From IMG/VR virus record IMGVR_UViG_3300029058_000046: 21,468 nucleotides of DNA; one strand, given 5' to 3'. The notes beneath the pieces were generated by a model. It was not told the origin of the DNA. It searched no databases and worked only from the letters and a program-made list of their open reading frames with translations. Shown here piece after piece: positions 1 to 18,966 of the stretch. Positions within the stretch are counted from its first letter, which is position 1; every line of letters begins with the position of its first letter. Both the position numbers and the translations under genes were made by a program. This stretch comes from a virus. Its lineage: Duplodnaviria; Heunggongvirae; Uroviricota; Caudoviricetes.

Positions 1-2868
1 ACTGCTGAATCCGCTGCGACCCGTGCGGAAGCTGCTGCTGATCGTGCTGAAGAGATTGCCGGTGCAGTTGCGATGGAAGACGCAAGCCTTACAACTAAAG
101 GTGTTGTGAAACTTAGCAGTGCTGTCGACAGCACCAGTGAATCGCTGGCCGCAACGCCAAAAGCAGTTAAAGCAGCCAATGACAATGCGAATAGCAGGGT
201 GCCATCTAACCGAAAAGTTAACGGTAAAGCACTGACTGCGGATATCACATTAACGCCGAAAGATATTGGTACTTTAAATTCAGTAACGATGTCTTTCTCT
301 GGCGGGGCAGGGTGGTTCAAACTGGCTACGGTTACCATGCCACAAGCGAGTTCCATCGTTTACATCGCATTGATTGGTGGCGCTGGTTACAACGTCGGCT
401 CCCCACATCAGGCAGGCATTTCAGAACTGGTTCTACGAGCAGGCAATGGAAACCCCAAAGGGATTACAGGTGCTTTGTGGAAGCGTACAGCTGTCGGATT
501 AACGAATTTCGCCTGGATCAACACATCCGGCGATACATATGATATTTACGTTGAGATTGGCAATTATGCGACTCGTGTAAATATCCATTGGGATTGTACT
601 GCAAATGCGACAGTTTCTATTTATACATCGCCAACATATTCAGCTAGTAAGCCTTCCAGCGTTACCGATGGTGTTGTTTATACGATGTATAGCACACATC
701 AGAAACCGACGCCGTTAGATATTGGAGCACTGCCAACAACCGGAGGAACAGTTTCAGGTCCGTTGTCTGTTACTGGTGGGATCACCGGAACATTAAATGG
801 TAATGCAAGTACAGCAACGAAATTGCAGACGGCAAGATCTATCGGTGGAGTTGGTTTCGACGGTTCTGCAAATATCAACCTTCCAGGTGTAAATACTACG
901 GGTAATCAGAACACCACTGGTAATGCTGCAACTGCTACAAAACTTCAGACGGCAAGAACTATCGGCGGCGTGAGCTTTGATGGTACTGCGAATATTAATT
1001 TGCCAGGTGTTAATACGACTGGTAATCAGAATACAACGGGCAACGCGGCTACTGCTACGAAGTTGCAGACTGCGCGTACTATCAATGGGGTGTCGTTTGA
1101 CGGCTCGGCAAATATTTCCTTGTCGCCAGCAAATATAGGTTGCCCGGCATCTCCTACTGGTTGGTTAACTACAGGAAGTAATGGCGGAGCAATAACAACA
1201 GCACAGTTAGTGACGTTATTGCAAAATAATGGAGCATTTAACACAAAGTCATGGATTGCTCGATGTGCGTGGGCCTATGCCAATAGTGCAACCATACCAA
1301 ATAGTGAAACTGGTTGTGGCGTTATTCCATTGGCAGGAGCTGTTATAGAGGTATTTAATAACGGTAGTAGCTCAAACAATTATACGATCCGTATAACAAC
1401 GGCCACAACGACGAGTGTCTCTGGTGCTCTCACTAATGCGGAGTTTATCTATGTATTTAATGGCACAGATTATTCTCCGGGATGGCGAAGAGTATATAAC
1501 ACGAAAAACAAACCAACAGCCTCTGATGTCGGTGCATTACCTCTTACCGGTGGTACATTATCTGGAGGTTTGACATCTTCTGGCGAGATCATTTCAAAAT
1601 ATGCAAATGGTTTCCGCATTGCTTACGGTAGCTTTGGGTTCTTTATCCGTAATGATGGATCGAACACATATTTCATGCTAACAGCATCAGGAGACACATT
1701 AGGTTCATGGAACGGTTTGCGACCTATTACAATTAATAATACCAGCGGTGCTGTATCAATTGGTAATGGACTAAATGTGACTGGTGGCGTAAATGGTAGT
1801 TTGAACGGTAATGCTTCAACAGCTACGAAGTTGCAAACAGCGAGAAACATCAATGGTGTTAAGTTTGATGGCTCAGGCGATATCAACATTAATACATTGG
1901 TATCTCGTGGCCGAGTTACGGCGTTAAGCGGCTCTACTCAAGGCACTGCTGGCATTCAAATGTACGAGGCGTACAACAATAGCTACCCGACCATGTATGG
2001 CAACGTATTGCACATGAAAGGTGCGAGTGCTGCTGGTGAGGGAGAGTTGCTTATTGGCTGGAGTGGTACGAGCGGTGCACATGCGCCAGTTTTCATTCGC
2101 TCACGAAGAGATAACACAGGTGCGGCATGGTCAGCGTGGGCGCAGGTATATACCGCTAAGGATTCAATCCCTGGTGTGAATACAACTGGTAATCAGAACA
2201 CTACTGGTAATGCCGCAACCGCCACAAAATTGCAGACAGCAAGGAAAATTGCTGGTGTGGCGTTTGATGGCTCTGCCGATATAACTTTGACTGCGGCTAA
2301 CCTTAATGCTTACACGAAAACAGAGGTAACAAACCTTCTAAGTTCCTATGCAAGCAGATCATCACTGACAGGCTATAGTGGCAACCTGGATATTATTGCT
2401 GAAACACTGGTTGTCAAATCAGGCGGTAGTGGAGGGTTTGCTATATGGGATATTGGCACAACTACTAGCGGTGCCAATATGTACATTGATCCAAACCCAG
2501 GTATCAATACAGTTTGGCGTTCAACCTCTTCAAGGCGCTATAAAAAGGATATTGAAACATTACAAGATCGATATGCTGATGAACTTTTGTCATTAAGACC
2601 TGTTTGGTATCGTTCAATTTGTCGAGGTGACCGAAAGGATTGGGGGTATTACGGCCTTATTGCTGAAGAGGTTGGTGAGATTGCCCCGCAATATGTCCAT
2701 TGGCGTGAACCAACAAATAATGATTCTCCAGAAGATATTTCCTCAAATGGTATGGTCGCTGAAGGAGTGATGTATGAGCGTTTGGTTGTACCACTCATTC
2801 ATCATATTCAGCAATTGACCAAAAGGGTTGAGGAGCTTGAAACGAAGTTAAATTCACCTAAAGAATAA
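1..2868 (+). CDS. Phage tail fiber protein, 5' partial (frame 1 is open from base 1; the listed ATG at 73 is internal). C-terminal ~115 aa look like an S74-type intramolecular chaperone/autoproteolysis domain
   Basis: No stop in frame 1 from 1 to 2868. N-terminal segment KGVVKLSSAVDSTSESLAATPKAVKAAND is the conserved motif of phage tail fiber N-terminal domains. Gly/Thr/Asn-rich repeats follow. C-terminus STSSRRYKKDIETLQ...GLIAEEVGEIAP matches the Ser/Lys signature and G-[FL]-IA-[QE]-EV block of self-cleaving fiber chaperone domains (starts near 2521). Confidence 0.85.
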   Translation, partial: TAESAATRAEAAADRAEEIAGAVAMEDASLTTKGVVKLSSAVDSTSESLAATPKAVKAANDNANSRVPSNRKVNGKALTADITLTPKDIGTLNSVTMSFSGGAGWFKLATVTMPQASSIVYIALIGGAGYNVGSPHQAGISELVLRAGNGNPKGITGALWKRTAVGLTNFAWINTSGDTYDIYVEIGNYATRVNIHWDCTANATVSIYTSPTYSASKPSSVTDGVVYTMYSTHQKPTPLDIGALPTTGGTVSGPLSVTGGITGTLNGNASTATKLQTARSIGGVGFDGSANINLPGVNTTGNQNTTGNAATATKLQTARTIGGVSFDGTANINLPGVNTTGNQNTTGNAATATKLQTARTINGVSFDGSANISLSPANIGCPASPTGWLTTGSNGGAITTAQLVTLLQNNGAFNTKSWIARCAWAYANSATIPNSETGCGVIPLAGAVIEVFNNGSSSNNYTIRITTATTTSVSGALTNAEFIYVFNGTDYSPGWRRVYNTKNKPTASDVGALPLTGGTLSGGLTSSGEIISKYANGFRIAYGSFGFFIRNDGSNTYFMLTASGDTLGSWNGLRPITINNTSGAVSIGNGLNVTGGVNGSLNGNASTATKLQTARNINGVKFDGSGDININTLVSRGRVTALSGSTQGTAGIQMYEAYNNSYPTMYGNVLHMKGASAAGEGELLIGWSGTSGAHAPVFIRSRRDNTGAAWSAWAQVYTAKDSIPGVNTTGNQNTTGNAATATKLQTARKIAGVAFDGSADITLTAANLNAYTKTEVTNLLSSYASRSSLTGYSGNLDIIAETLVVKSGGSGGFAIWDIGTTTSGANMYIDPNPGINTVWRSTSSRRYKKDIETLQDRYADELLSLRPVWYRSICRGDRKDWGYYGLIAEEVGEIAPQYVHWREPTNNDSPEDISSNGMVAEGVMYERLVVPLIHHIQQLTKRVEELETKLNSPKE
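795..1127 (+). repeat. Tandem in-frame ~120-nt (40-aa) repeats inside the tail fiber gene; two full units and one partial, with dispersed extra copies near 1798-1880 and 2167-2285
   Basis: Unit NA(A/S)TATKLQTAR(S/T)IGGV(G/S)FDG(S/T)ANINLPGVNTTGNQNTTG recurs at protein level, but the nucleotide copies differ at many synonymous positions. Confidence 0.7.
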
Positions 2869-2880
2869 ACAACTTCAATC

Positions 2881-2903
2881 GGGGCTGGAACTAAACCAGC
2901 CCC
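2881..2903 (+). terminator. Stem-loop just after the tail fiber stop (8-bp GC-rich stem ggggctgg/ccagcccc, 7-nt loop); weak terminator or processing site, no U-tract
   Basis: Perfect inverted repeat read directly; followed by tgcttaaaag rather than a T run. Confidence 0.35.
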
Positions 2904-2928
2904 TGCTTAAAAGTATAAGGATATATTT

Positions 2929-3183
2929 ATGAGCTATGGTGCACAGGTTTGGTCGCCATCAAGACAGGAGATGGTCGATGCGTTGGCCCCTGTTTATTAC
3001 CTCGATTATTTTACTCCCTCTGGTTCAGGAAGTAGAACATATGAGGTTGAGGCGGGATTGGGAATCGACTATTACATAATGGACGTAACCAATGGAAAAT
3101 ACACAAGTCTTACGGTTTCTGGAAATACCATTTCGTGGTCTGGAGCTAGTGGTAATTTAAACATATTGGTTTTTCAAAAATAA
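2929..3183 (+). CDS. Hypothetical protein (84 aa), tail-fiber-associated by position
   Basis: ORF with aagga-like RBS upstream; stop overlaps the next start (TAATG at 3181-3185), suggesting translational coupling. No recognisable motif. Confidence 0.45.
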   Translation: MSYGAQVWSPSRQEMVDALAPVYYLDYFTPSGSGSRTYEVEAGLGIDYYIMDVTNGKYTSLTVSGNTISWSGASGNLNILVFQK

Positions 3184-3791
3184 TGTACGGAAGCAAGATA
3201 TATCGATCTGACGGGAAGGTCTGGATGTCTCCTTCTTTGTCTCCTATCGTTTTTCAGAGAAAGCAGGTTGTTTCTTTGTCCGGCGGGACAGAGTTTAACA
3301 CCCAAATATCTCCAGATCGTTCACCGATGATTTTTGTTGCCTATTCGAAAGCTGTTTCATTAATAGCCAACAGAATAGTGCGTAACAACCAGGTGATTTA
3401 CAGTTTCGGAGGTCAGGGTAGCGACTCTAGTGCCACGATATACGTATTTTCGAAAGGTATAGCCAAAAAAGAAACTTGGGGCATGAGTTTTTTCAATGCA
3501 CAAGGGGAGGAAATCTATAATACGGCAAATATCCCACTTTCATTTACCTTTCTTAATAATACGGAGTGGAACAGCTCTGGAGGGCATGTTTTTGATTACC
3601 CACCAGCGATAATCCCAACATATGCGAATGTGTTCGCTGTTCCAGTACCGGGCGGAGCCATGACAATGGTTTATGGATATGCGGCATATGGAAATACTGT
3701 TAGCTCGATATTCGTAAACCAACTTAATGGCGGCCATAGTTTTAGCGTAAATGGCAGAGTACCGGTAATAAATAGAAATCTGTATAACTGA
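3183..3791 (+). CDS. Hypothetical protein (202 aa), Ser/Gly/Asn-rich; possible fiber-associated or receptor-binding accessory protein
   Basis: Long ORF coupled to the upstream ORF, same strand as the fiber gene. No catalytic motif recognised. Confidence 0.5.
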   Translation: MYGSKIYRSDGKVWMSPSLSPIVFQRKQVVSLSGGTEFNTQISPDRSPMIFVAYSKAVSLIANRIVRNNQVIYSFGGQGSDSSATIYVFSKGIAKKETWGMSFFNAQGEEIYNTANIPLSFTFLNNTEWNSSGGHVFDYPPAIIPTYANVFAVPVPGGAMTMVYGYAAYGNTVSSIFVNQLNGGHSFSVNGRVPVINRNLYN

Positions 3792-3798
3792 TGAGTAA

Positions 3799-4032
3799 AT
3801 GATGAAAAGATTATTTCTAATAATAGCTGTTGTTCTCTCTCTTACTGGCTGCCAGAAATTGCCGACACCTATATGTTACGGTGAGGCTATCATTGGTGGA
3901 CAGGAGACAGTCATACCCATATATGCTGTTAAAAAAGTGAACGACTATACCTTATACAAAGCGGGTAGTATCTATAACTGGCGATGGGTAGGAGTAGGTG
4001 CTTTCTCATCAGTCCGTTGCAATGCTGAATGA
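3799..4032 (+). CDS. Small lipoprotein (77 aa precursor); possibly a Cor/Llp-type superinfection-exclusion lipoprotein
   Basis: N-terminus MMKRLFLIIAVVLSLTGCQK has a signal peptide and lipobox L-T-G-C. Size and position just downstream of fiber genes match Cor/Llp-type exclusion lipoproteins; the function is inferred, not shown. Confidence 0.6.
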   Translation: MMKRLFLIIAVVLSLTGCQKLPTPICYGEAIIGGQETVIPIYAVKKVNDYTLYKAGSIYNWRWVGVGAFSSVRCNAE

Positions 4033-4113
4033 TAGGTAGGTACACACCTACAATAAAAGGGTGAAATGTGATATAAATCCGCCATCCCGATTTGACTTTT
4101 CATGGAGGAAAAC

Positions 4114-4437
4114 ATGTCGAACGAGATGGCGAGCGTTACAACAGAGCAAGTTGAGCGTATTGCCGCGATCGTTGCTCGGGAGGTTGTTGGCAAATTAGGT
4201 AAAGAGCTACGTGAAGAAATTGGCCAGGAGGTCAATGATCAGCTGAAAACCTACTTTGGTGATATGACCCCGGCGCAACATAGTATTCAACACTCCAATC
4301 TGGACAAACTCCTTAACCGGTTAGATTCCATCTCCAGTGGGTTCTTTGGCGGCATTGTTTCTAAAATAACGTCGTTCATTATTACTGCACTGCTTTTGGG
4401 GTTAGCCGCGTATGGCGTAAAAAATGGACTGCAATAA
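4114..4437 (+). CDS. Holin-like small membrane protein (candidate first gene of a lysis cassette)
   Basis: GGAGG Shine-Dalgarno 6 nt before the ATG at 4114 (the track's ATG at 4102 has no RBS). Hydrophilic N-terminal part, one C-terminal hydrophobic segment (ITSFIITALLLGLAAYGV). Sits immediately upstream of the endolysin candidate. Confidence 0.45.
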   Translation: MSNEMASVTTEQVERIAAIVAREVVGKLGKELREEIGQEVNDQLKTYFGDMTPAQHSIQHSNLDKLLNRLDSISSGFFGGIVSKITSFIITALLLGLAAYGVKNGLQ

Positions 4438-4450
4438 CAGGAGATCAAGG

Positions 4451-5143
4451 ATGAAGACTCCGAGAGGCATTCGTAATAATAACCCCGGTAATCTTGATAA
4501 AGGATCACCGTGGCAAGGTCTGGTTGCGAATCCAGACGAACCGCGCTTTTGCACGTTTAAAGACCCTGTTTGGGGGATTCGTGCGCTGGCGGTGACTCTA
4601 ATTACCTACCACGACAAACGTCGCGCAAAAGACGGCTCAAGTATCGATACCATTCGTGAAGTTATTGAACGTTGGGCACCGCCGAATGAAAACAACACTG
4701 ACGCCTACATTAATGAGGTGTCTAAAGCCGTTGGTGTAACCGCAGACATGATCATCGATCTGCATGATTACGACATCCTTCGACCTTTGGTTGAGGCAAT
4801 CATTCGCCACGAGAATGGTCGAGGTCCACTAAAAACGCTGAACACCTGGTATGCGGCAGAAGTTATTGAGGAAGGTCTGCGTCGAGCCGGCGTCGTTAAG
4901 CCGGTGAAAACCGTGAAGGCTGTTCCTGTAACTAAAGAAACCGCAGGCGCAACTGTCACAGCAGGTATTGGTCTGGCGCAGCTTGCCGATGTTATGCCGC
5001 AGGTTTCCGCTGCTATGGATAAAGCACAAGGTCATATCTCTAGCGGGGATACAGTACGCATCATCTTCGGTATTGCCACTATTGTTGTGGCAGGATTCAT
5101 TGCCTGGTCGCAGGTAAGAAAACACCAGAAAGGGATGGTCTAA
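4451..5143 (+). CDS. Putative endolysin / peptidoglycan hydrolase with a C-terminal hydrophobic anchor
   Basis: AGGAG RBS 8 nt before the ATG at 4451. Conserved-looking N-terminal motif GIRNNNPGNL. C-terminal hydrophobic helix IIFGIATIVVAGFIAW. Flanked by a holin-like gene and a spanin-like pair. The enzymatic family is not assigned. Confidence 0.45.
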   Translation: MKTPRGIRNNNPGNLDKGSPWQGLVANPDEPRFCTFKDPVWGIRALAVTLITYHDKRRAKDGSSIDTIREVIERWAPPNENNTDAYINEVSKAVGVTADMIIDLHDYDILRPLVEAIIRHENGRGPLKTLNTWYAAEVIEEGLRRAGVVKPVKTVKAVPVTKETAGATVTAGIGLAQLADVMPQVSAAMDKAQGHISSGDTVRIIFGIATIVVAGFIAWSQVRKHQKGMV

Positions 5144-5144
5144 T

Positions 5145-5396
5145 ATGCTAGGCAGCCTGATGACAAAGCTAAAAGTTGCTTTGATTACGCTGGCTGCCGT
5201 TCTTTTCGTTCTTGTCGGCGCTTACACGATGGGCGGAAATGCGGCGCGACGAGCAATGGAAGAGAAGGCAAAACAGGAAGACAGAAAACGACTTCAAAGC
5301 ACAGTGGATGTCAAAAATGAAACGGTTAATGAAGTGCGGCAAAAAGATGCCTCTGGTGTTCATCGCGAGCTGTTTGATAAATGGGTGCGTGATTAA
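5145..5396 (+). CDS. Rz-like inner-membrane spanin (i-spanin) candidate
   Basis: 83 aa with N-terminal transmembrane segment (LKVALITLAAVLFVLVGAY) followed by a charged coiled-coil-like region. Start is 1 nt after the endolysin stop. Confidence 0.55.
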   Translation: MLGSLMTKLKVALITLAAVLFVLVGAYTMGGNAARRAMEEKAKQEDRKRLQSTVDVKNETVNEVRQKDASGVHRELFDKWVRD

Positions 5397-5544
5397 GACG
5401 CAGGCTCCAGGCGTGCTATTCTGCGATGCTGCAAATCCTATTTATGTGAGTAGAGAGGATTTTATGACTGAGGAAACGGAGCGACAGTTGCTTATCCACA
5501 ATACGATAGGTGAAAGGCTGTGTGAGTGGGGGCACCTGAACTGA
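5317..5544 (+). CDS. Rz1-like outer-membrane lipoprotein spanin (o-spanin) candidate, starting inside the Rz-like gene in the +1 frame and running past its end
   Basis: Out-of-frame ORF overlapping the 3' part of 5145-5396. Product has a short signal peptide and lipobox (MKRLMKCGKKMPLVFIAS-C). Start codon uncertain (5308, 5317 or 5329). Confidence 0.4.
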   Translation: MKRLMKCGKKMPLVFIASCLINGCVIKTQAPGVLFCDAANPIYVSREDFMTEETERQLLIHNTIGERLCEWGHLN

Positions 5545-5768
5545 GTCGATGATTGATGAGTGGTCTCAGTTTACCTTTTATCCTAAAGATGGCATCTTCA
5601 CTCATATACACGCCTGTTCACTCAAGCTCATGTTGAATCATTTAGTAATTTGATGTAGATTTATTAGGCATCCACGTAAGTGGGCACATACAGGCTACGC
5701 ATCCTCGTAGCCTTCAACCCCGAGAGGGGTGCCGCAATGACACTTGTGTTAACGGCTAAGGTGGACAC

Positions 5769-6152
5769 ATGCTGAACGAGAAACGTTCTATACAAACTAT
5801 TCGCGATTGCACGAGTATTATCGAGACTCATGTGCTGAATCAGCACAAGCTTGAAGTACGTAAGCTCAATAATGACGCTATTGAACCGGAAGACTCACGC
5901 TTCATCGTTACCTTCAAAGACGATGTTGAGCGCGCTGGTGCAAGCGTGAAGCCATTAGCTGAAGCAATTTACCTGAATGGTCGTGTTCGTTTTGTAGTCA
6001 AGCCAGCTAAACAGTACCCTGAGCTGTCTCGTTTTATCGAGGCTTTTTCGGAGGTTATTGAACATTCTATTCGCCGCTTCTTACGCAATCATGGTAGCAT
6101 TGTCAGCACGGTTAAGGCTGATGATTCTGCTACAAAATGGCTCCTACACTAG
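5769..6152 (+). CDS. Hypothetical protein (127 aa)
   Basis: ATG preceded by AAGGTGG Shine-Dalgarno; 3' end overlaps the next ORF by 16 nt. No recognisable motif. Confidence 0.55.
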   Translation: MLNEKRSIQTIRDCTSIIETHVLNQHKLEVRKLNNDAIEPEDSRFIVTFKDDVERAGASVKPLAEAIYLNGRVRFVVKPAKQYPELSRFIEAFSEVIEHSIRRFLRNHGSIVSTVKADDSATKWLLH

Positions 6153-6889
6153 ATAGCGCATATTCAAAAGATCTAAGCGAGTTTCCTCATAAAGGGGAGA
6201 CTCGTGTTGTTCGTTTTGGCTTTCTTATCAATGAAGCCTCCCTCTATAAAATCTCAGAAATTGAAATCATTGAACCAGAAGATGACATTTGCCTGTATGT
6301 CTCTATGGAACTTGTAGGTGCGCGCGACCAAGGCGACCTGAGCGAATTCATCTTAGATCGAGCGGATGAAGATGCCCCTGAAGAAGAGATTATCAAAGAG
6401 GTGCTCCAGTCCGGGCTTCTGGACGAAAACAAAAATACGATCGCTGGTAGGATAGCTCTGCGTGAATATAGTTTTGTTGAAGACGGTAATGAGATCGAAT
6501 GTTACCAGGTAGCCGGTGTCGAAACTGTCAGAGAGCGTCGTCAGCGAGGATTGTGTCACCGTACCTATCTCTTTCTTCTTCATTGGTATGAGCATTTAGT
6601 CTGCGACGATACACAAACCATTCCTGGTGCTAAGATCTGGGCAGGGCCTCTCATGCGAACCGGCGATGTGCGTATATACAATGCCAAAACAGAAACGTTC
6701 GAGGATGTGTTAGGCGAGTACGGGATGGGGAAAGAAACCGGATTTTTGCCGTGGAACAGAGGATTGTTGCTTGATGCAGAGTTAAGCTCTTGGCTCCCAA
6801 ACAAAGTGCAAGTTAACGTTCAGAAATTTATCGTACTTATCATCTCCCGCAAAACAAGAACTCCAGTAGGTTTATACCTAAAAGATTAA
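6137..6889 (+). CDS. Hypothetical protein (250 aa), acidic, no recognised domain
   Basis: Long ORF overlapping the preceding gene, followed directly by a strong intrinsic terminator. Confidence 0.6.
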   Translation: MAPTLDSAYSKDLSEFPHKGETRVVRFGFLINEASLYKISEIEIIEPEDDICLYVSMELVGARDQGDLSEFILDRADEDAPEEEIIKEVLQSGLLDENKNTIAGRIALREYSFVEDGNEIECYQVAGVETVRERRQRGLCHRTYLFLLHWYEHLVCDDTQTIPGAKIWAGPLMRTGDVRIYNAKTETFEDVLGEYGMGKETGFLPWNRGLLLDAELSSWLPNKVQVNVQKFIVLIISRKTRTPVGLYLKD

Positions 6890-6893
6890 AAAT

Positions 6894-6920
6894 CAGGCGA
6901 CTTTGGTCGCCTTTTTTGTT
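6894..6920 (+). terminator. Rho-independent terminator
   Basis: caggcgac-tttg-gtcgcc stem-loop followed by TTTTTTGTT, immediately after the stop at 6889. Confidence 0.75.
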
Positions 6921-7015
6921 AACAGCCATTGATTCTCGCCTAAAAATTCTAAGGCAGCACCTACCATTTAACCTTTACACCACAGCCGTAGGCATTTAGG
7001 CTATATCACATATAA

Positions 7016-7031
7016 GAAAACAAGTTGTTTC
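7016..7031. promoter_or_regulatory. Palindromic motif AGAAAACAAGTTGTTT upstream of the ParA gene; candidate operator
   Basis: Nearly identical copy (AGAAAACAATTTGTTT) at 9946-9961 upstream of the helicase gene. Both are inverted repeats AACAA-N-TTGTT, 34-50 nt upstream of start codons. Confidence 0.3.
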
Positions 7032-7065
7032 AGACGATAATTATATACGCAAAGGGAACTCTCCA

Positions 7066-7734
7066 ATGACCAAGATCTTTGTGGTTGGCGGCACAAAGGG
7101 CGGGCCTGGCAAATCCACCGTTGCCCAGCAAATTGCCGTTTGCCTGAAAGTCAAAAAGAAGAAGAAGGTTTATATCACCGATATAGATATTCAGCGCACG
7201 ACAACGAGCTGGTGTGAAGACCGTCGACAGAACGAAGACCTTGAGCTGATTCCTTTTGCATACGTTCAGGATGACATCATTAAGCACCTAAAATCGCTTC
7301 AGGGTAGAGCTGAGTATGTAGTGGTAGATGCTGGTGGCTTTGACTCCGAAATTCAGCGACAAGCGATGCTGATGGCCGACGTTATCATTATCCCGCTTCG
7401 TCCTAAGCGTCGTGATTTGAAATCTCTGCGTGACATCGATCCTATTATCGACAATGTTCGTAATGTAAACGATAAAGTGAAGGTCCGCGCGGTCATGAAC
7501 CAGTGCCCGGCTTTGCCATCACAAGTGTCTCGCATTCTGGCGGCTAAAGAGATTGTTGAGACGTTTGGCATCGAGTCTGCGCCAGTCAATCTATATAACC
7601 GCAACGTCTATGATGATGCGGAAGAGTCTGGTCGTTCTATCTTTGAAATGACCGGTAGCGAGCGCGACAAAAAGGCGGAAGCCGAGTTTGAAGAATTTGT
7701 AGATTATCTGTTGAGTCTGGAGGAAGAAGAATAA
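7066..7734 (+). CDS. parA: ParA/Soj-family partition ATPase (small, type Ib-like)
   Basis: Deviant Walker A box GGTKGGPGKST at the N-terminus, ~220 aa, acidic C-terminus. Followed by a small overlapping partner gene. Confidence 0.85.
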   Translation: MTKIFVVGGTKGGPGKSTVAQQIAVCLKVKKKKKVYITDIDIQRTTTSWCEDRRQNEDLELIPFAYVQDDIIKHLKSLQGRAEYVVVDAGGFDSEIQRQAMLMADVIIIPLRPKRRDLKSLRDIDPIIDNVRNVNDKVKVRAVMNQCPALPSQVSRILAAKEIVETFGIESAPVNLYNRNVYDDAEESGRSIFEMTGSERDKKAEAEFEEFVDYLLSLEEEE

Positions 7735-8093
7735 TGTCCATGAAAATGGGTGACCTAGCAAAGCGCAAAGAGCCTGATGCACCGGCTAAGAACACAACTC
7801 CTTTGCGCCAACCAGTCAGACCACAGGGACGCCCGACTCGTGGCAAAGAGAAAATTAAAAGCCGCACAATGTCACTGGAGGACGAATACTTCGAACTGCT
7901 GGAGATGATGAAGTTCATCCCTCGCTTCGAGAAGTTCACTCGTTCTGACGTGATTCGAGCAGCCATTTTCCATCTGGCAGAGAAGTCACCGCAGGAAATC
8001 GAGGACATCGTGAAATTGAATGAGGCGATCACCGCTGCCGATGTCACGATGCGTACCGATGAAATCAAACGAGAGTTGATGAAGAAAGGTTAA
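7734..8093 (+). CDS. Small partition partner protein (ParG/ParB-like centromere-binding candidate)
   Basis: 119 aa; start overlaps the ParA stop (TAATG). Basic, probably disordered N-terminus and a C-terminal region (MSLEDEYFELLEMMK...) compatible with a ribbon-helix-helix type Ib partner. Assignment is by context. Confidence 0.45.
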   Translation: MSMKMGDLAKRKEPDAPAKNTTPLRQPVRPQGRPTRGKEKIKSRTMSLEDEYFELLEMMKFIPRFEKFTRSDVIRAAIFHLAEKSPQEIEDIVKLNEAITAADVTMRTDEIKRELMKKG

Positions 8094-8098
8094 AAATC

Positions 8099-8129
8099 AT
8101 GCATTGGCGCGTACATTGCGCCAATGCAT
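8099..8129. terminator. Palindrome between convergent genes; candidate bidirectional terminator
   Basis: atgcattggcgc-gtacatt-gcgccaatgcat: 12-bp perfect stem, 7-nt loop, between the + strand gene ending 8093 and the - strand gene ending 8146. No clear U-tract. Confidence 0.5.
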
Positions 8130-8145
8130 AACTACAGTGTCAGCT

Positions 8146-8913
8146 TTATGCCGCGCTAACACTATGTTCAGTCCTAACCACCCCAACCTTCACAAAAGGG
8201 CTACCGTAGCTTGGTGGCTTCTTGATTAATTTGCCTACATACAGTTTTCTAATATGCTCATCGGCTATTCTGCCAACAAATTCATAACGTTTTGTGTCGG
8301 GGCCAAGAGCTATATCCCTTGTAAAGTACTGCTGAGAACCGGCTTTGACCCAGCATTCAATCTGATAAACTTCCATTATCAGCCCACCATATGTAGCGTA
8401 GGCATATTTGAGATTCTCGTCTCTTGGAACCTTTGCCCATACGCCACGCGTAGCCTCATATAATGCCAGAGCGGACATTCCTGACTTGTAGGTGCTGTTT
8501 AGCAGGAAGGCAAGACCGGCGTGCTCAGGAGCAATTTCAGTTTCCTCTTGCAGCACTAAGTGATGGTAGGCGTCCAGTGATATTCTGCCCATCATGGAAC
8601 CACTTCCTCGTACCTTATTCGTAAGCTCTCCGACCCCCATAAGGTCGATGCATGTCGCCTCAACAAGTTTGGCTGTGGTTTCATCCATACCATGACGAAG
8701 TATATCTATGCCTAATTTTTTATTAGCCAAAAGTTCTTTGATCCGCATGGATTTGGGAGAGTCATCGGGATACTTGATGTGATCGAGACAACGAGTCGAT
8801 TTGCCTTTTCCTATGTAAAACGGTCTTTTCATCTTGTCTTCTGTATCATAGAGACAGTAAACATAGTATTTAGCCTTATCCAATGATCTCGCGTATACCG
8901 ATAAATCGTCCAT
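8146..8913 (-). CDS. GIY-YIG nuclease-domain protein (255 aa) with an unassigned ~160-aa C-terminal domain
   Basis: N-terminal YVYCLYD...RPFYIGKGK...R..H...E pattern matches the GIY-YIG catalytic motif. Only sizeable antisense gene in the partition/replication region. Confidence 0.7.
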   Translation of the reverse strand: MDDLSVYARSLDKAKYYVYCLYDTEDKMKRPFYIGKGKSTRCLDHIKYPDDSPKSMRIKELLANKKLGIDILRHGMDETTAKLVEATCIDLMGVGELTNKVRGSGSMMGRISLDAYHHLVLQEETEIAPEHAGLAFLLNSTYKSGMSALALYEATRGVWAKVPRDENLKYAYATYGGLIMEVYQIECWVKAGSQQYFTRDIALGPDTKRYEFVGRIADEHIRKLYVGKLIKKPPSYGSPFVKVGVVRTEHSVSAA

Positions 8914-9024
8914 TATTGCATCTCTTTGCTACTGACTAATGCGTTCTATTTTACACATAAGTTTTTAATCAATTTAACAGGCTCAAAGTGTAGAGCTTCT
9001 GGGCGTCTAAGACGACAAGTTATG

Positions 9025-9079
9025 CCTGCTTCTGTATATATAAATAATAAGTAACTTATTAAATATATACGGAAGCAGG
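9025..9079. promoter_or_regulatory. ~55-bp AT-rich near-perfect palindrome between the divergent GIY-YIG gene and the replication module; candidate operator or origin element
   Basis: cctgcttctgtatatat ... atatatacggaagcagg: 17-bp arms with one G-T mismatch, around an internally palindromic AT-rich core (aataagtaacttatt). Confidence 0.35.
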
Positions 9080-9195
9080 TCTTTTAAAAGACACCACCAG
9101 AACAACTCCCTTCCGTTTCCACTTCCAAAAACTGCCACCAGTCGCTATCATCCGCTCATTGTGATAAGTAAGTAACTACCTACCAGGTGAGCCAC

Positions 9196-9936
9196 ATGAG
9201 CCAAATCTTTTTCGATACCATCGACAACGACCAGTACGACTTCATGACAGAGTGGAATACCGCTGTTATGGACAAGTGGGTCGCTGAAAACATTGGTTTG
9301 TCGCGCTGTAAAGACGAGGCTGAACTCTTCGAGACGAAGTGGTTTGATTACCGCGACATGCATCCTCTCATGGCCACCTGTCTTTTTACGGAGGCATACA
9401 AACGTCAGTACTCAAATATCATGCTGACGCACGGTCGCGAACACTTTGAAACAGCTCCGTTCACCACCGGGTTAAAACGCCTGCCTTATCAGGAGTTGTC
9501 GACTGCCAATAAAACGTCTCTATGGAAAGCACGCCAGTTTGCTGACCGCTATTGCTGCTCATACGACTACTTTATCTCCACCGTTCTTTCCGCAGCTGCA
9601 CGACGGCTGTGGGACAAGCTGCCGCGCCCACAGCATTTATGGCAGCCAGAGCTGGTTGAGATATTCGAAGAGAAATTAGCCAGACGCGCAACAACCCGTC
9701 TGGATGACTCTCTAGTTAGCTTTAAGCATATGGGAGACATGCAGTTCAACCCGATCCAGGAAAGCTATTTTGAGTGGATTCTGGAGCGTTTACGCACCAT
9801 CCCCCGCAGCAAGCGCATACGCGCAATTTTCTCCGCTATCTGGCTAATGGAAATCGTTCCAGAGCGCCTTATTTCCGCCCACTTTCCAGAAGAACTGGAA
9901 GAAGCACGGCGGTTTATTGATCCCCTATCTAATTAA
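9196..9936 (+). CDS. Hypothetical protein, first gene of the replication module (possible initiator or helicase loader, by position only)
   Basis: AGGTGA RBS 5 nt before the ATG at 9196 (the track's start at 9187 is GTG). Directly precedes the helicase gene. No motif recognised. Confidence 0.55.
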   Translation: MSQIFFDTIDNDQYDFMTEWNTAVMDKWVAENIGLSRCKDEAELFETKWFDYRDMHPLMATCLFTEAYKRQYSNIMLTHGREHFETAPFTTGLKRLPYQELSTANKTSLWKARQFADRYCCSYDYFISTVLSAAARRLWDKLPRPQHLWQPELVEIFEEKLARRATTRLDDSLVSFKHMGDMQFNPIQESYFEWILERLRTIPRSKRIRAIFSAIWLMEIVPERLISAHFPEELEEARRFIDPLSN

Positions 9937-9945
9937 CTAATACTA

Positions 9946-9961
9946 GAAAACAATTTGTTTA
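9946..9961. promoter_or_regulatory. Second copy of the AGAAAACAA(G/T)TTGTTT palindromic motif, upstream of the helicase gene
   Basis: AGAAAACAATTTGTTT, 19 nt before the ATG at 9980; matches the motif at 7016-7031. Confidence 0.3.
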
Positions 9962-9979
9962 AAAAACAAAGGAAAGCAC

Positions 9980-11320
9980 ATGACCGAACTTTGCCATACA
10001 GGACGCGGGCTGTCCGAAGAGTTTGATGAAGATTTCCAGAACAGACTGACGGCATATTTTTGTCGTGATCACGAGTTTCTTACTCGTGCGGGAGATCTGG
10101 TTGTGCCTAGCCAATTTGCCAATGCGGCCAATGCCATATTGGTTAATATGGTTTCGGGCTATTACCGTATGTACAAGAGCGCGCCTTCTTCATCTGCGAT
10201 TCTGGATATGCTTAAGCGTGCGAAACGCGATAAGACCATCCGTGAGGAACTCTTCCCGGATGTTGTTGCTGCGTTTAAGCGCATCCTTGCAGAAAAATTG
10301 TCTGATACCTCGTACATGGTTGACCAGGTATCCACATTCGCAAAAAGTGTAGCGTTTGATGATGCTCTGATTAAAGCTGCTGAACTGAAAGAGAAGGGCG
10401 ACTTTCAGGGGGCGATGGCAATCATGGCCAAGGTTCAGCAGATAGGCTCGAACGAAGCGACCGGAATCTATGACTACTACACCTCCGCAAGTGAGCGATT
10501 GAAAGCGCGTGAATATGAGGCTTCAGAGGAGTATGTGCCAAACAGCATTACAACTGGACTCCCTCTGCTTGATAGATTGCTGTACCAAAAAGGCTGGGCA
10601 AAGCGCGAAATGGTGCTCTTCATGGGTTTTGCTAAATCCGGTAAATCGACCGCAATGGGTGAGTTTTCCATAAACGCTACGCTTGCTGGCTACAATGTTC
10701 TGTATCTCTCGCTGGAGGTTCACACCACCATTTTGTCCGACCGTTTTGATGCAAGATTGTCGGAGACGGAAATGTCCAAGCTGGTGGAACGGCGCGATGA
10801 AGTTCATCGCAAGTTGGCAGAGTTGGGAGCCACGAAGGGGATTGGTAGTTTGTGGGTTGTTGAGCGTCCGTCAGGAAGTATGTCACCGGCAGATCTGGAC
10901 CGTATGCTTAACAGTATGAAAGCCAATGGCATGGTGCCTGACATGGTTGTTGTCGACTACGCAGATTTGATGCGTGCCAGTTATGACCTTCGTGATGATC
11001 GCGCCAACATTCGTAGTATCTACACCGATTTACGTGCTCTTTATGACAAGCATAACGTTGCTGGTATCACGGCGTCGCAAACAAACCGTGAAGGTGGCGC
11101 GTCAGAAGTTGCCACAATGATGCACGCTGCCGACAACATCGAAAAAGTACGTATTGCTGACCTGGTAATAACGATCAACAAAACCGAAGAAGAAGAAGCG
11201 AAAGGAGAGGCTCGTCTCTACTTTGCTGGTTCGCGTAACCAGCAGGGAGGGATCAGCATTCGCGTTAAACAAAACCTCGAACAAATGCGCTTCATTGAGC
11301 GAATCTTAGACGTTACCTAA
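9980..11320 (+). CDS. DnaB-family replicative DNA helicase
   Basis: Walker A GFAKSGKST, SLE motif (LYLSLEV), Walker B-like VVVDYADLM and SQTNRE motif, in the order typical of DnaB/T7 gp4-type RecA-fold helicases. AAGGA RBS upstream. Confidence 0.85.
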   Translation: MTELCHTGRGLSEEFDEDFQNRLTAYFCRDHEFLTRAGDLVVPSQFANAANAILVNMVSGYYRMYKSAPSSSAILDMLKRAKRDKTIREELFPDVVAAFKRILAEKLSDTSYMVDQVSTFAKSVAFDDALIKAAELKEKGDFQGAMAIMAKVQQIGSNEATGIYDYYTSASERLKAREYEASEEYVPNSITTGLPLLDRLLYQKGWAKREMVLFMGFAKSGKSTAMGEFSINATLAGYNVLYLSLEVHTTILSDRFDARLSETEMSKLVERRDEVHRKLAELGATKGIGSLWVVERPSGSMSPADLDRMLNSMKANGMVPDMVVVDYADLMRASYDLRDDRANIRSIYTDLRALYDKHNVAGITASQTNREGGASEVATMMHAADNIEKVRIADLVITINKTEEEEAKGEARLYFAGSRNQQGGISIRVKQNLEQMRFIERILDVT

Positions 11321-11327
11321 AAAATAA

Positions 11328-11348
11328 GCGTGGAGAACACCTCCACGC
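11328..11348 (+). other. Perfect 8-bp hairpin (gcgtggag-aacac-ctccacgc) between the helicase stop and the primase gene
   Basis: Inverted repeat read directly. It contains the GTG that the ORF track uses as the primase start (11330), so that start is unlikely to be real. No U-tract. Confidence 0.35.
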
Positions 11349-11401
11349 TTGATTCATTGGTGAAACAACTTTTCTTTTGCCAAACCACAAAAGAAAAACA
11401 C

Positions 11402-12583
11402 ATGAGCCTTTATGTTATATCAACATTTAGGTTGGTCACAATATTGCCTGTTAAAAGTGGAATTATCGTGAGCGAGCTGAAAGAGCTAATTACCGAATTA
11501 GATTTTGAACAATGGTTGGATACTGAAGGTATCGTTTATCGACGTGGAGGCGTGAGTACTCGCGGTCGTGAAGTGAATATCAAGGAGTGTCCGGTATGCG
11601 GCAGCTCCAACTGGAAGGTATATTTCAATCTGACCAGTGGCGTCGGTAAATGCTTCGCTGGTGATCATCCCGAAGAGATTCAGTTCAATAAGCTGGTCTT
11701 CCTCAAGCACTACAGCGGTAAATCACGACGACAGTTCGAGGAATATGTGCAGAACGCTCTTCTTTCCCAGGGGTGGGCACCAAAGAAAGAAGAGATAGTG
11801 CTTGCAAGCACAGTCGAGTTAGAGGGACCAGTTGCACTCCCTCGTCATTACGATCTTCCTATAGATGGCCATCTTCCAGACTATCTGGTTGAACGAAATA
11901 TATCGCCTGAAATGGCAAAGTATTTTGACCTACGATACTGCGTCGAAGGCAAGCACGCTTATGTAGATCCGTATACAGATCAGGTTAAAGGACAGATTTT
12001 CGATATGCGAATACTGATACCGGTTTACGATCTGGATGGGGTAATGAAGACATTTCAAGGACGAGACATTACCGGTACAGCAGAACGCCGCTACCTCTTT
12101 CCTATGCAGCTTCCAGCTTCAGGTAAGTTTCTCTACAACGGCCACAATGCAGTCGGCAAACAGACTGTAGTTGTCTGTGAGGGGGCGTTCGATGTTATGG
12201 GGGTCAAACGAGCTATTTTTGACGAAGAAACATTACGCGATTACGTGGAACCAATAGGAACGTTCGGGATGCATCTATCTGGTAACACCACTCAGGATGC
12301 AGAAGATCAGTTGGGCGCGTTCCTGACGCTCAAGGCGCGTGGATTACGTAATGTGATCATGATGTGGGATAGTGAAAAGCAAGCTATACGAAACACTATG
12401 GCCGCAGCCAGGCGACTGACCAGTATCGGTCTTAATGTGAAAATTGCATGTTTGGGCGAGGAAGGACTCGACCCCGGCGATGCGACCCCGGGGCAGATTA
12501 TCAAAGCCTACTATTGCGCAAAACCTTACTCACGACAGCTTGAACTTTTAAGCAAGGTAAAAGGCATAGCAGCATTAGTTTGA
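11402..12583 (+). CDS. DNA primase (zinc-ribbon plus TOPRIM domain)
   Basis: Zinc-binding motif CPVCGSS...GKCFAGDH and TOPRIM-like acidic motifs (VVVCEGAFDVMGV, EEGLDPGD). Start uncertain: ATG 11402 or GTG 11468; 11330 sits inside a hairpin. Confidence 0.75.
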   Translation: MSLYVISTFRLVTILPVKSGIIVSELKELITELDFEQWLDTEGIVYRRGGVSTRGREVNIKECPVCGSSNWKVYFNLTSGVGKCFAGDHPEEIQFNKLVFLKHYSGKSRRQFEEYVQNALLSQGWAPKKEEIVLASTVELEGPVALPRHYDLPIDGHLPDYLVERNISPEMAKYFDLRYCVEGKHAYVDPYTDQVKGQIFDMRILIPVYDLDGVMKTFQGRDITGTAERRYLFPMQLPASGKFLYNGHNAVGKQTVVVCEGAFDVMGVKRAIFDEETLRDYVEPIGTFGMHLSGNTTQDAEDQLGAFLTLKARGLRNVIMMWDSEKQAIRNTMAAARRLTSIGLNVKIACLGEEGLDPGDATPGQIIKAYYCAKPYSRQLELLSKVKGIAALV

Positions 12584-13720
12584 ACCAGTATTAGTCACGT
12601 ACACATTGACCGAAAATGATTTAACTTCTGTGTTGAAGTTGTCAGTCATTACCGCGAGGTAGGCATTCTTGGTATCTCTGAATTGCTTCAGTATGATTTG
12701 AACGTTATCGGTGCAAACAAACGAGGTAGCCAGATTGCCTCCTTTCTCTGAAAAATCCTTCAGGAAGGTGCAGTCAACTTTGCCATCATTAGCGGTGAAG
12801 GTAGCATCATCACCCTGCCAGGTAAATGTAGCGTTAACGCCCTTATCAATGGATTTAGCAATAAGTCGCTGGGTGGCGGATTTTGTTTTGGCTTTGGAAG
12901 CCGGCGCTCGATATTTGCCGCTTTCTTTCAGTTCTGCAATGTAATCACAGCCATTTTTATCTTCTTTATCACAAGCAGCCTGATAAAGCTCAGCTGCTTT
13001 TTTATAGTCTTTTTTAACCCCTTCACCATACTCATACATAATGCCAAGATTTGTCATGGCATCGGCGTTTCCGAGTTCAGCAGCTTTTTTATACCACTTA
13101 ATTGCTTCGGCATCGTTGCGTTTAACACCTAAACCGTCATCGTATAAGGTGCCTAATGCGAACATGCCATCTGAACTACCTTGATCCGCCGCTTTTTTGT
13201 AATAAGTAAAAGCTTTTTTATAACTCTTTTGTACACCTTTACCATATTGGTAATACGCACCAAGAAGGTAGCTAGCTTTAACATACCCGGCATCAGAGGC
13301 TAGTTTGAAGTATTTAATGGCGAGCGCATGATCTACTTTACCAAGCATCCCCTTTTGATAAATAGCACCAAGATTGTTATAGGCTCTACCTTCACGAGCA
13401 TCTCCCGCAAGTTTGTAGTACTCAACTGCTTTATTTAAGTCTTTATCTACACCCTCGCCAAATGTGTACATAACCCCAAGTGCATAATATGCTACTTTGT
13501 CTCCCTTTTCTGCAGCGAGATCAATCCACTTCTTGGCCTCAACTACATCCTTATCAAAACCATTGATACCATCAAAATAATTTGTCCCTAACTCACTTTG
13601 TGCTGCGGTATCCCCTGCGGTAGCGGCTTCTATCAGCGTTTGTTTATTGTCTGCGTTAACGAATCCAGAGCTAAAAAGCAAAGTTAATGCCAGCAACGAT
13701 GAAGATTTTATGTATTTCAT
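12575..13720 (-). CDS. Secreted Sel1-like repeat protein with a ~130-aa non-repeat Cys-containing C-terminal domain
   Basis: Sec signal peptide MKYIKSSSLLALTLLFSSGFVNA/DN, then at least six ~36-aa repeats of the form A..YY..G.MY..GEGV.KD..KA..WYKKAA typical of Sel1 repeats. 3' end overlaps the primase 3' end by 9 bp. Start taken at the ATG for MKYIK; the track's TTG at 13765 is less likely. Confidence 0.75.
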   Translation of the reverse strand: MKYIKSSSLLALTLLFSSGFVNADNKQTLIEAATAGDTAAQSELGTNYFDGINGFDKDVVEAKKWIDLAAEKGDKVAYYALGVMYTFGEGVDKDLNKAVEYYKLAGDAREGRAYNNLGAIYQKGMLGKVDHALAIKYFKLASDAGYVKASYLLGAYYQYGKGVQKSYKKAFTYYKKAADQGSSDGMFALGTLYDDGLGVKRNDAEAIKWYKKAAELGNADAMTNLGIMYEYGEGVKKDYKKAAELYQAACDKEDKNGCDYIAELKESGKYRAPASKAKTKSATQRLIAKSIDKGVNATFTWQGDDATFTANDGKVDCTFLKDFSEKGGNLATSFVCTDNVQIILKQFRDTKNAYLAVMTDNFNTEVKSFSVNVYVTNTGSN

Positions 13721-13953
13721 ATTTTTTGTTCTGTTGATATAGGATGAACAGTTTAGACGCGGCAAGTGTCAAGTGTGCGAAAAATGGTACTTAAATTTAG
13801 TTAATATGTCAGCTTTGTTGATTTAGTTTATGGTCGGTAAAGTTACTAGGAAACTAATAACCATAAGAAATAGTACGCCATTTAATTATTGTGGCACTGC
13901 TCGTGTTTTGATTAACTAATACCTGCGATAAATATAAATAAAGGGAAGCCAAC

Positions 13954-14367
13954 ATGAGCAAAAATAAGCTGATTTTAACAGGAGCTTTATTGTCTTTGTT
14001 TGCTTTAGTGGGGTGTAAGCCTACAGACGAGAAGGCTATTGCTCTGGGCCAACAAGCAATTGCGGATGATATGAAAGATCCCACGTCGGTGATGTTTAGG
14101 AAAGATAAGTTTGTCAGGACTGATCATGACGATGGGAGTGTGACAGGCTTTGTGTGCGGAGAATTGAACGCCAAAAATGGCTTTGGTGCATACGTGGGCT
14201 ATCACTCATATGTTGTTGAACTCGAAATGAAGCCAAAGGGCATGTTTTCGAAAGGGGTGGTATACAAAATCCTATCGAAGTCGTTGGCACCTAATGATCC
14301 TCATGACTTACAGCGTTATAAGCAGGTCTACAGAAAGATGTGCAACAGTGAGGCTGTAGCTCATTAA
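13954..14367 (+). CDS. Lipoprotein (137 aa precursor), divergent from the Sel1-repeat gene
   Basis: Signal peptide with lipobox L-V-G-C (MSKNKLILTGALLSLFALVGCKP). AAGGGAAG RBS upstream. Confidence 0.65.
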   Translation: MSKNKLILTGALLSLFALVGCKPTDEKAIALGQQAIADDMKDPTSVMFRKDKFVRTDHDDGSVTGFVCGELNAKNGFGAYVGYHSYVVELEMKPKGMFSKGVVYKILSKSLAPNDPHDLQRYKQVYRKMCNSEAVAH

Positions 14368-14373
14368 TGGTGA

Positions 14374-14400
14374 ATGCCGGGCAGACTATAAGCCCGGCAT
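14374..14400 (+). terminator. Stem-loop after the lipoprotein gene (9-bp stem atgccgggc/gcccggcat); candidate terminator
   Basis: Perfect inverted repeat 7 nt after the stop codon; weak U-tract. Confidence 0.4.
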
Positions 14401-14492
14401 CTTCGTATAGGGAACTATTGCGCCTAAAATGATAAGTAGATACATACTTAGTTTTTTGTAAGAATACTTTCATCTGTTAGCTAGGAGTTGGT

Positions 14493-15269: not shown

Positions 15270-15335
15270 GCTCTCTGTGTGTCGTTTTTACGCAAATAAT
15301 GATAGGTAAGCACAAGATTATTTCTGGCGGTAATT

Positions 15336-17301: not shown

Positions 17302-17500
17302 ACGGGAGAAGGAAACGCTTCATGAAATCAGTAAGTGGCCGGAGTTCCCTGAGTACTGGAAGCCTAAAACGCGAGCTAAGTTAGAGCGTTTAGGGTTGGT
17401 TGCAAACGTTTCTGAAACGAAGTGTTCGGCCAACTACCAGTTAACTGATAAAGGGAAAGTATTGCTACAGCAATTAGTAGAATCAGGAGTGTTAAAATGA
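17285..17500 (+). CDS. Hypothetical small protein (71 aa)
   Basis: AAGGAG RBS before the ATG at 17285; overlaps both neighbours. Confidence 0.45.
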   Translation: MIVLSKREKETLHEISKWPEFPEYWKPKTRAKLERLGLVANVSETKCSANYQLTDKGKVLLQQLVESGVLK

Positions 17501-18965: not shown

Positions 18966-18966
18966 A

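Follow-up and report, generated by a model that had tools for sequence, protein, structure and literature searches.

Endolysins of the Enc34/M4Lys type carry a hydrophobic module at the C-terminus, and the route by which such a signal-less, C-terminally anchored enzyme reaches the murein is a question already posed in the literature for the whole class. The present work concerns a locus of this type, positions 4114-5544 of the IMG/VR virus record IMGVR_UViG_3300029058_000046 (Caudoviricetes), a stretch of 21,468 nucleotides that is called the window throughout. The locus is very probably the late lysis cassette of an SSU5-type phage-plasmid of Escherichia coli. The account of it as a whole, comprising this identity, an anchored endolysin, a spanin pair with an outer-membrane member of the Chi family and a first gene acting as holin or timing partner, is considered likely with good confidence.

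M4Lys, the endolysin of Salmonella phage BSPM4, is 97-99% identical to Chi-like endolysins; in a truncated form it degrades peptidoglycan with N-acetylglucosaminidase specificity, and the full-length protein alone lyses E. coli without a holin or Sec, a lysis that azide does not block (Bai et al., PMC7143992). Lysis is lost when the transmembrane domain (TMD), or just the 13 C-terminal residues, are removed, and the TMD by itself is bacteriostatic (PMC7143992). Open reading frame (ORF) 39 of phage Enc34 is toxic at full length and harmless when truncated; its structure was solved, Glu131, Trp79 and Tyr95 were named as catalytic or substrate-positioning residues, and its export route was stated as unknown (PMC8943055). 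For the homologue of phage Siskin, two C-terminal TMDs with an N-in/C-in topology were predicted and a new endolysin class was proposed (PMC6498227).

Cassette layout and source element

Four tightly packed ORFs occupy the + strand of the window at 4114-5544, with the coordinates and order given by an earlier reading of this DNA made from its letters only (the sequence-only reading). They encode, in turn, a small tail-anchored membrane protein of 107 amino acids, the holin candidate (4114-4437, with the Shine-Dalgarno (SD) sequence GGAGG at 4104-4108), an endolysin of 230 amino acids (4451-5143, AGGAG at 4439-4443), an Rz-like inner-membrane spanin (i-spanin) of 83 amino acids (5145-5396) and, in the +1 frame, a putative Rz1-like prolipoprotein of 75 amino acids, the outer-membrane spanin (o-spanin; 5317-5544). 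The stop codon of the holin candidate lies 13 nt before the endolysin ATG, and the i-spanin ATG is located one base past the endolysin TAA. Two other start codons were considered and rejected: ATG 4102 for the 107-residue protein, which has no SD sequence itself and overlaps that of ATG 4114, and ATG 4424 for the endolysin, which lacks an SD sequence and is unused in the annotation of relatives.

The identities of the four genes were established directly. In PHROG searches the products matched, in gene order, phrog_5093 (1.4e-68), phrog_873 'endolysin' (3.4e-88), phrog_1026 'Rz-like spanin' (5.7e-25) and phrog_1275 'Rz-like spanin' (1.1e-25). Chance alone does not account for the cassette: each protein matches a phage family, and eight relatives have an intact +1 frame. 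Pfam and NCBIfam scans of all four proteins returned nothing above threshold; weak Pfam matches to DUF6187, DUF3851, SLATT_1 and TraQ were dismissed, being confined to hydrophobic segments. A scan of 3700-5900 for promoters and terminators gave no sigma-70-like site; its single terminator-like hit, on the minus strand, is no more than chance expects. The cassette is probably read within a longer late transcript.

Positions 2-19356 of the window match E. coli plasmids of about 113 kb, such as pM160133_p3, at 100% identity, and the cassette is 83-95% identical to that of Escherichia phages Cyrano, PhiR41_1 and CMS-2020a and Salmonella phage SSU5; the element is an SSU5-type phage-plasmid. The surroundings fit a phage-plasmid, with a tail fibre and a Cor exclusion lipoprotein upstream and ParA, a DnaB-like helicase, a primase and a ligase downstream. 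The cassette is of an already known kind, annotated at this locus in public phage records: its four genes are called Holin, Endolysin, Rz spanin and Rz1 spanin in Cyrano, and putative holin, endolysin and Rz-like spanins in SSU5. The proposal that the region is a lysis cassette is backed by homology, by these annotations and by experiments on homologues (PMC8943055, PMC7143992). In itself the cassette adds nothing new, its genes being annotated, its enzyme class having a crystal structure and in vitro data, and its spanin being catalogued. In the NCBI annotation of an identical E. coli plasmid, as tabulated by PLSDB, the three cassette proteins listed are 'hypothetical' and no gene is given at the +1-frame ORF; together with the lack of Pfam and NCBIfam models for the endolysin, this indicates that many phage-plasmids have no lysis annotation fit for confident transfer.

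The endolysin and its C-terminal membrane module

By sequence, the 230-residue protein is classified as an endolysin of the Enc34/M4Lys type (CDD PHA02564 / PHROG 873). Its catalytic domain comprises residues 1-151 (4451-4903) and carries GIRNNNPGNL at residues 6-15. In a phmmer search of the PDB, residues 3-151 matched 7q47_A, the Enc34 enzyme (E=2.6e-54, 64% identity over 149 aligned residues). An AlphaFold2 (AF2) model, computed from an alignment of 38 homologues, reached a predicted local distance difference test score (pLDDT) of 80-96 across the catalytic domain, and its only significant PDB neighbour in Foldseek was again 7q47 (E=2.4e-14, template modelling score TM(target) 0.76), so that domain search and structure prediction for the 4451-5143 product arrive at the same structure. 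The protein joins an all-helical glycosidase domain, similar to the alpha lobe of lysozyme, to a membrane module at its C-terminus. The catalytic residues were identified directly: E121 (RHENG; codon 4811-4813), W75 (ERWAPP) and Y86 (DAYIN) align with Enc34 Glu131, Trp79 and Tyr95 and are invariant in these 38 homologues, which are 56-90% identical. Chi gp38 shares about 55% identity with the protein over its full length. The enzyme family, left unassigned by the sequence-only reading, is PHA02564 / PHROG 873, with the crystal structure 7Q47 and a glycosidase activity measured for M4Lys; Pfam and NCBIfam hold no model for it, and probably the enzyme was therefore seen as unassigned. By homology, N-acetylglucosaminidase activity and, on overexpression, a TMD-dependent, holin- and Sec-independent lysis are expected of the window endolysin, the experiments behind this expectation having been made on homologues.

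Large virion proteins can contain this catalytic domain too, and from this arises the reading that the 230-residue protein serves entry, as a peptidoglycan hydrolase of the virion, or is a membrane protein without lytic function, the true endolysin being encoded elsewhere in the element. The domain is found in phrog_7182 'tail injection transglycosylase', in tape-measure and head proteins, in chain L of PDB 9vvp ('Gp29', 1295 aa) and in internal virion proteins of T7-like phages, CDD labels PHA02564 'virion protein', and among 793 phage records with catalytic-domain matches 611 match this domain only. However, the full 230-residue architecture with the membrane module is common to 182 of the 793 records, between a small membrane protein and spanins, and in the examined relatives that have it the endolysin gene adjoins spanin genes. 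In the window the genes of the holin candidate and the i-spanin flank it in tight translational packing (stop 5141-5143, next ATG 5145), and homologues of this architecture lyse or kill E. coli on expression (PMC7143992, PMC8943055). A virion or non-lytic role is thus very improbable, as judged without a scan of the rest of the ~110-kb element for another endolysin: the full-length architecture is that of lysis-cassette endolysins, with which large virion proteins share the catalytic domain only.

Hydropathy was scored as the mean Kyte-Doolittle-type value per 19-residue stretch (KD19). The scan revealed no N-terminal hydrophobic segment in the endolysin, hence no N-terminal signal or signal-anchor-release (SAR) domain; the catalytic domain already includes the N-terminus, MKTPRGIRNNNPGN, and the protein does not qualify as a SAR endolysin. 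The C-terminal membrane module, delimited by hydropathy, conservation and AF2 helices, comprises residues 152-230 (4904-5143), and its two helices and their conservation were observed directly. The distal TMD (residues 204-222, nt 5060-5116) is strongly hydrophobic (KD19 = 2.07), confirming the C-terminal hydrophobic helix noticed before, and is followed by the cationic tail RKHQKGMV. The proximal helix (residues 164-189) is weakly hydrophobic and rich in Gly, Ala and Thr (G/A/T; 14/26 residues), its best 19-mer, 164-182, scoring 1.11, and an SSG-containing loop at residues 190-203 lies between the two. AF2 places helices at 173-193 and 200-226 with low to moderate confidence. Among the 38 homologues P159, T161, A167, G174, Q177, A188, S198 and Q221 are invariant or nearly so, as are an acidic residue at 180, P183 and basic residues at 203, 223 and 224. 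The module, which is also present in Chi gp38 and in the 182 phage records, is not a generic anchor. Compared with PHROGs, it matched only phrog_873 itself and, weakly, a 'membrane protein' family (E=0.0037), and no holin PHROG, so that its comparison with pinholins (a SAR-like helix plus a hole-forming helix) is one of analogy, not homology.

A further observation concerns the linker motif VPVTKET (residues 158-164, nt 4922-4942), which is almost invariant in the 38 homologues (P159 and T161 100%, K162 94%, E163 97%). This conservation is far above that expected of a passive linker, and the motif could be a processing, docking or hinge site.

Both outer flanks of the module carry a net positive charge, from a lysine-rich linker ahead of the proximal helix (K150, K153, K157, K162) and from R/K223 and K224 behind the distal one, and the loop that joins the two is neutral to acidic. 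This charge pattern favours an N-in/C-in topology, like that predicted for the Siskin homologue (PMC6498227), provided that the proximal segment spans the membrane. Three points weigh against it: the proximal helix is marginal, with a summed Hessa free energy (dG) of about +7.8 kcal/mol and the conserved D180, Q177 and P183; its AF2 pLDDT is <50; and the authors of the M4Lys study, who considered the distal helix alone, arrived at the reverse prediction, N-out/C-in (PMC7143992). Because the proximal helix is only marginally hydrophobic and its pLDDT is low, a true hairpin is uncertain. The N-in model is preferred because the protein has no N-terminal signal and no pathway is known that exports an N-terminal domain of ~160-200 residues by a C-terminal signal (PMC8943055).

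In a rival arrangement, which mirrors SAR logic and is judged unlikely although it deserves weighing, the distal helix would be a single N-out/C-in anchor and the catalytic domain would lie in the periplasm, held inactive or restrained at the membrane, until depolarisation by the upstream protein, in the role of a pinholin, releases or activates it. SAR domains such as those of P1 Lyz and phage 21 R are G/A/T-rich and can leave the bilayer, and the proximal segment has a like composition. Behind the distal TMD come 3-4 basic residues, and the flank on its N-side is neutral to acidic; N-out was the output of Phobius and Phyre2 for M4Lys (PMC7143992), and the Enc34 authors raise both a tether-and-release mechanism and a pinholin role of the holin (PMC8943055). 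This arrangement is opposed by the lysine-rich linker, which argues for a cytoplasmic N-side, by the missing N-terminal signal or SAR sequence in a protein whose N-terminal domain would have to be exported folded, with no known pathway (PMC8943055), and by the failure of azide to block M4Lys lysis (PMC7143992).

For the N-in model, a mechanism of Sec-independent C-terminal insertion, a tethered endolysin and lesion-based access to the murein is put forward tentatively, its probability being judged a little short of even. As it has neither signal nor SAR sequence, the endolysin is proposed to insert post-translationally and independently of Sec through the C-terminal module, which would leave the catalytic domain and the cationic tail both cytoplasmic and the proximal and distal helices as a hairpin or as an interfacial-plus-spanning pair. 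The enzyme would then accumulate tethered at the inner membrane, kept from the murein, until a critical concentration is reached that may be set or tuned by gene 1, whose tail-anchored small membrane product would act as holin or lysis-timing partner. At this point the distal helices and/or the holin would make membrane lesions, through which the tethered catalytic domain would reach the peptidoglycan and cleave glycan strands, and the spanins would complete lysis by disrupting the outer membrane once the wall is cut. In this scheme we infer the topology, the order of events and the role of gene 1, and the muralytic activity and the holin- and Sec-independent lysis that requires the C-terminal TMD are taken from experiments on homologues. 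That a C-terminal anchor on an endolysin is unusual and implies a non-standard release, as had been suggested for this gene, agrees with the conclusions of PMC7143992 and PMC8943055.

The spanin pair and the upstream membrane protein

Genes 3 and 4 encode a two-component spanin of the overlapped kind, whose o-spanin belongs to the Chi family. The i-spanin has an N-terminal TMD at residues 11-29 (KD19 = 2.38), a charged helical periplasmic part and a conserved C-terminal KWVRD; its homologues occur in SSU5-like elements and, at weak similarity, also in Chi, BUCT551 and Kokobel1. The two genes overlap by 80 nt (i-spanin stop 5394-5396, o-spanin stop 5542-5544). The sequence-only reading had placed a lipoprotein ORF in the +1 frame inside the Rz-like gene; the frame is real and its lipobox Cys conserved, but the start had to be corrected to ATG 5317 (MKRLMKCGKKMPLVFIASCLINGC...), a Met that is conserved in relatives. 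The putative signal peptide, MKRLMKCGKKMPLVFIASCLING, has a basic n-region, MKRLMKCGKK, and a hydrophobic core; the lipobox Cys24 (5386-5388), with Val at +2, where Asp would disagree with outer-membrane sorting, is aligned in all eight relatives, and the predicted mature part of ~52 residues bears the conserved motifs FCDAANPIY...TEETERQ...GERLC. Cys19 (FIASC) was rejected as the lipidated residue, since pJN2-26 has Phe in its place and no residue of Chi-like phages aligns with it.

By tblastn, an open alignable frame was found in 8/8 relatives examined, including the distant Chi, Providencia phage Kokobel1 and Aeromonas phage BUCT551, where the o-spanin is 39-46% identical (E about 1e-14) and FC..A.PIY and GERLC are kept; the +1-frame ORF is thus conserved in related phages. 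Dual coding was observed directly in five SSU5-like sequences: upstream of the overlap, 38/57 sites at i-frame position 3 are variable vs 10/57 at position 2, and after the i-spanin stop the counts are 39/49 at o-frame position 3 vs 11/48 at position 2. Both frames are under coding constraint, as expected for two real genes.

What speaks against the lipoprotein assignment is the lipobox of the window, L-I-N-G-C (5380-5388), which has Asn at -2 where relatives show V/I-S-G-C: Ser is found in SSU5, Cyrano, CMS-2020a and pJN2-26, and Asn in the window and its identical plasmids. Asn at this position lies outside the usual consensus (PROSITE PS51257 / DOLOP). The single A/G difference behind it also turns Asp to Gly at i-spanin codon 79. 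The atypical Asn, the shorter ORF called by the Cyrano annotators and the missing gene in the PLSDB table would all suit a chance open frame, in which case the cassette would hold an i-spanin only or another outer-membrane disruptor. Such a frame is hardly credible in view of the open frame, aligned Cys and conserved motifs in eight relatives, the excess of variable sites at o-frame position 3 past the i-spanin stop, the phrog_1275 match and the listing of the SSU5 o-spanin in the 'Chi' o-spanin family of a curated spanin survey (PMC6139136).

The holin candidate is the least documented part of the cassette. It has one strong hydrophobic segment, residues 81-99 (KD19 = 2.02), followed by YGVKNGLQ, and its AF2 model (pLDDT 79) consists of helices 10-48 and 53-103 joined by the turn FGDM, with the TMD at about 81-101 in the second helix. 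As in a holin, a small protein with one TMD is encoded beside an endolysin, and the annotation of pJN2-26 names the homologue holin or 'putative holin', like those of Cyrano and SSU5. Homologues were found in only 12 phage records, all SSU5-like, and in 29 clusters, none of them named, of a large protein collection; a profile of the family, run against 1.84 billion representatives, returned 54 clusters (E <= 1e-3), most of 94-150 residues. Twenty aligned cluster members share a helical N-part, the motif [YH]FGDM.P..H..QH.R...LL...D..S.NFWG and a single C-terminal TMD, just before which G49, H56 and H60 are invariant in the aligned family members, and 21/21 aligned members scanned fall in phrog_5093, labelled 'unknown function'.

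Homologue loci of the protein were collected at L010:3001-3333, L011:3001-3333, L012:1081-1413 and L013:3001-3390. One metagenomic homologue is encoded directly upstream of a Peptidase_M15_3 endolysin (phrog_894) and two small membrane ORFs, and another stands after a GP38 tail adhesin and before a phrog_8226 'holin' and a phrog_669 endolysin. Because homologues head cassettes with unrelated endolysins, the phrog_5093 family is taken as a lysis-cassette component independent of the endolysin type.

The holin role meets several objections. The Pfam, NCBIfam and PHROG scans gave no annotated holin homologue; against Pfam the protein showed only a weak match to IpaB_EvcA (E=0.18, 12 bits vs a cut-off of 29.9 bits), against NCBIfam none, and the family profile found no relative in the PDB, only low-complexity helical repeats. 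The highly charged C-terminal tail typical of holins is missing, some 6 residues (VKNGLQ, one Lys) following the TMD, and the charged region is N-terminal. The separate 'holin' PHROG beside one remote homologue suggests that gene 1 may encode an antiholin or regulator and not the hole former. Two possible relationships were tried and rejected: an origin by permutation from gp37, the Chi-type holin (BLASTP E=17, hhalign E=0.11), and family membership of a tail-anchored protein of 99 residues encoded upstream of the endolysin homologue in L016, an Alcaligenaceae genome assembly, in which FGD...H...H aligns at a non-significant hhalign E=0.16.

Partners upstream of TMD-endolysin homologues differ. 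Chi, Kokobel1 and L017 have a Chi-type protein with an N-terminal TMD, L016 has the tail-anchored protein, and in BUCT551 and L015, which have the spanins as well, no obvious small membrane ORF lies directly upstream of the endolysin; such loci fit the holin-independent lysis reported for this class. As for what stands there, BUCT551 (L007 577-3077) has a protein of 453 residues, and L015 (1231-2432), whose endolysin homologue NCBI names from Pasteurella multocida, has one of 85 residues with no clear TMD.

With rather little confidence, it can be speculated that the SSU5-type cassette combines two non-canonical membrane actors, a self-delivering holin-endolysin and a new tail-anchored class of holin or antiholin. 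By analogy, the two-helix module of the former could be a built-in pinholin-like device, with a SAR-like G/A/T-rich helix, a hole-forming helix and a basic tail; the latter could be the widespread phrog_5093 family, with G-x6-H-x3-H before the C-terminal TMD, working with at least three unrelated endolysin types.

Neighbouring genes and comparison with known systems

Upstream of the cassette lie a tail-fibre gene (73-2868), genes for a phrog_557 (2929-3183) and a phrog_425 (3183-3791) membrane protein and, directly before the cassette, the gene of the Cor superinfection-exclusion lipoprotein (3799-4032; NCBIfam NF047972 4e-23, phrog_1119 9e-31). Just downstream, a variable slot (5545-6900) differs among relatives: the window has two uncharacterised ORFs, of phrog_2594 (5769-6152) and phrog_3307 (6137-6889), Cyrano has a KacT-type toxin-antitoxin pair (L001 4535-5369), its similarity to the window ending near 5524, and pJN2-26 has a single reverse-strand ORF (L005 3981-4538). 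The plasmid maintenance and replication module (7066-17125) follows, with ParA (7066-7734), a phrog_5111 protein that is RelE/ParE-like by Cyrano annotation (7734-8093), a GIY-YIG protein (8146-8913, minus strand), the DnaB-like helicase (9980-11320), the primase (11330-12583), a Sel1-repeat protein (12575-13765, minus strand) and an ATP-dependent DNA ligase (15803-17125). The match to the phage-plasmid backbone breaks off at 19356, and beyond it (19356-21468) lies an insertion sequence with an rve-family integrase/transposase (19387-20205, minus strand). This insertion sequence shares 99.9% identity with an annotated transposon of Salmonella phage SEN22 and explains thousands of plasmid matches.

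SSU5-type phage-plasmids would offer a convenient genetic system for the export question of the Enc34/M4Lys class, and the different, uncharacterised partner protein of their cassette could help to tell what the anchor contributes from what the holin does. Beyond this second, different partner, the window makes the question no more tractable.

The closest described system is that of Enc34 ORF39 (PDB 7Q47; Cernooka et al. 2022, PMC8943055), with which the window endolysin shares the 64% identical catalytic domain with the same Trp, Tyr and Glu, the order of catalytic domain, linker and two C-terminal helices, and the cassette position followed by an overlapped spanin pair. It differs in its host element, a phage-plasmid of ~110 kb and not a Chi-like siphovirus, in lacking two short insertions of the Enc34 protein and in an unrelated upstream partner gene. 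With M4Lys, Chi gp38 and the Siskin homologue (PMC7143992, PMC6498227) the module has in common G-x-x-Q, P, SSG, R before the TMD and the basic tail; in contrast, the partner in Chi-like phages has an N-terminal TMD (a proposed 'class IV' holin, N-out/C-in), whereas that of the window has a C-terminal one.

Like the SAR endolysins and pinholins (P1 Lyz, phage 21 R / S21 68), the cassette may employ a membrane-tethered muralytic enzyme with a weakly hydrophobic, G/A/T-rich helix, and lysis may likewise be possible without a large-hole holin; the two-helix module with its basic C-terminus also recalls the two-TMD layout of pinholins. Unlike in SAR endolysins, the hydrophobic module is C-terminal and not N-terminal, and Sec-mediated export of the catalytic domain is therefore not expected. 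The spanin genes are arranged as in overlapped spanins of the P2 LysB/LysC type, an i-spanin with an N-terminal TMD and a putative lipoprotein, encoded in the +1 frame, that starts inside and extends beyond the i-spanin gene. The SSU5 i-spanin was not grouped with that of Chi by Kongari et al. 2018 (PMC6139136), and the similarity found here is weak (E=0.018); the window o-spanin is homologous to the o-spanins of Chi and Enc34.

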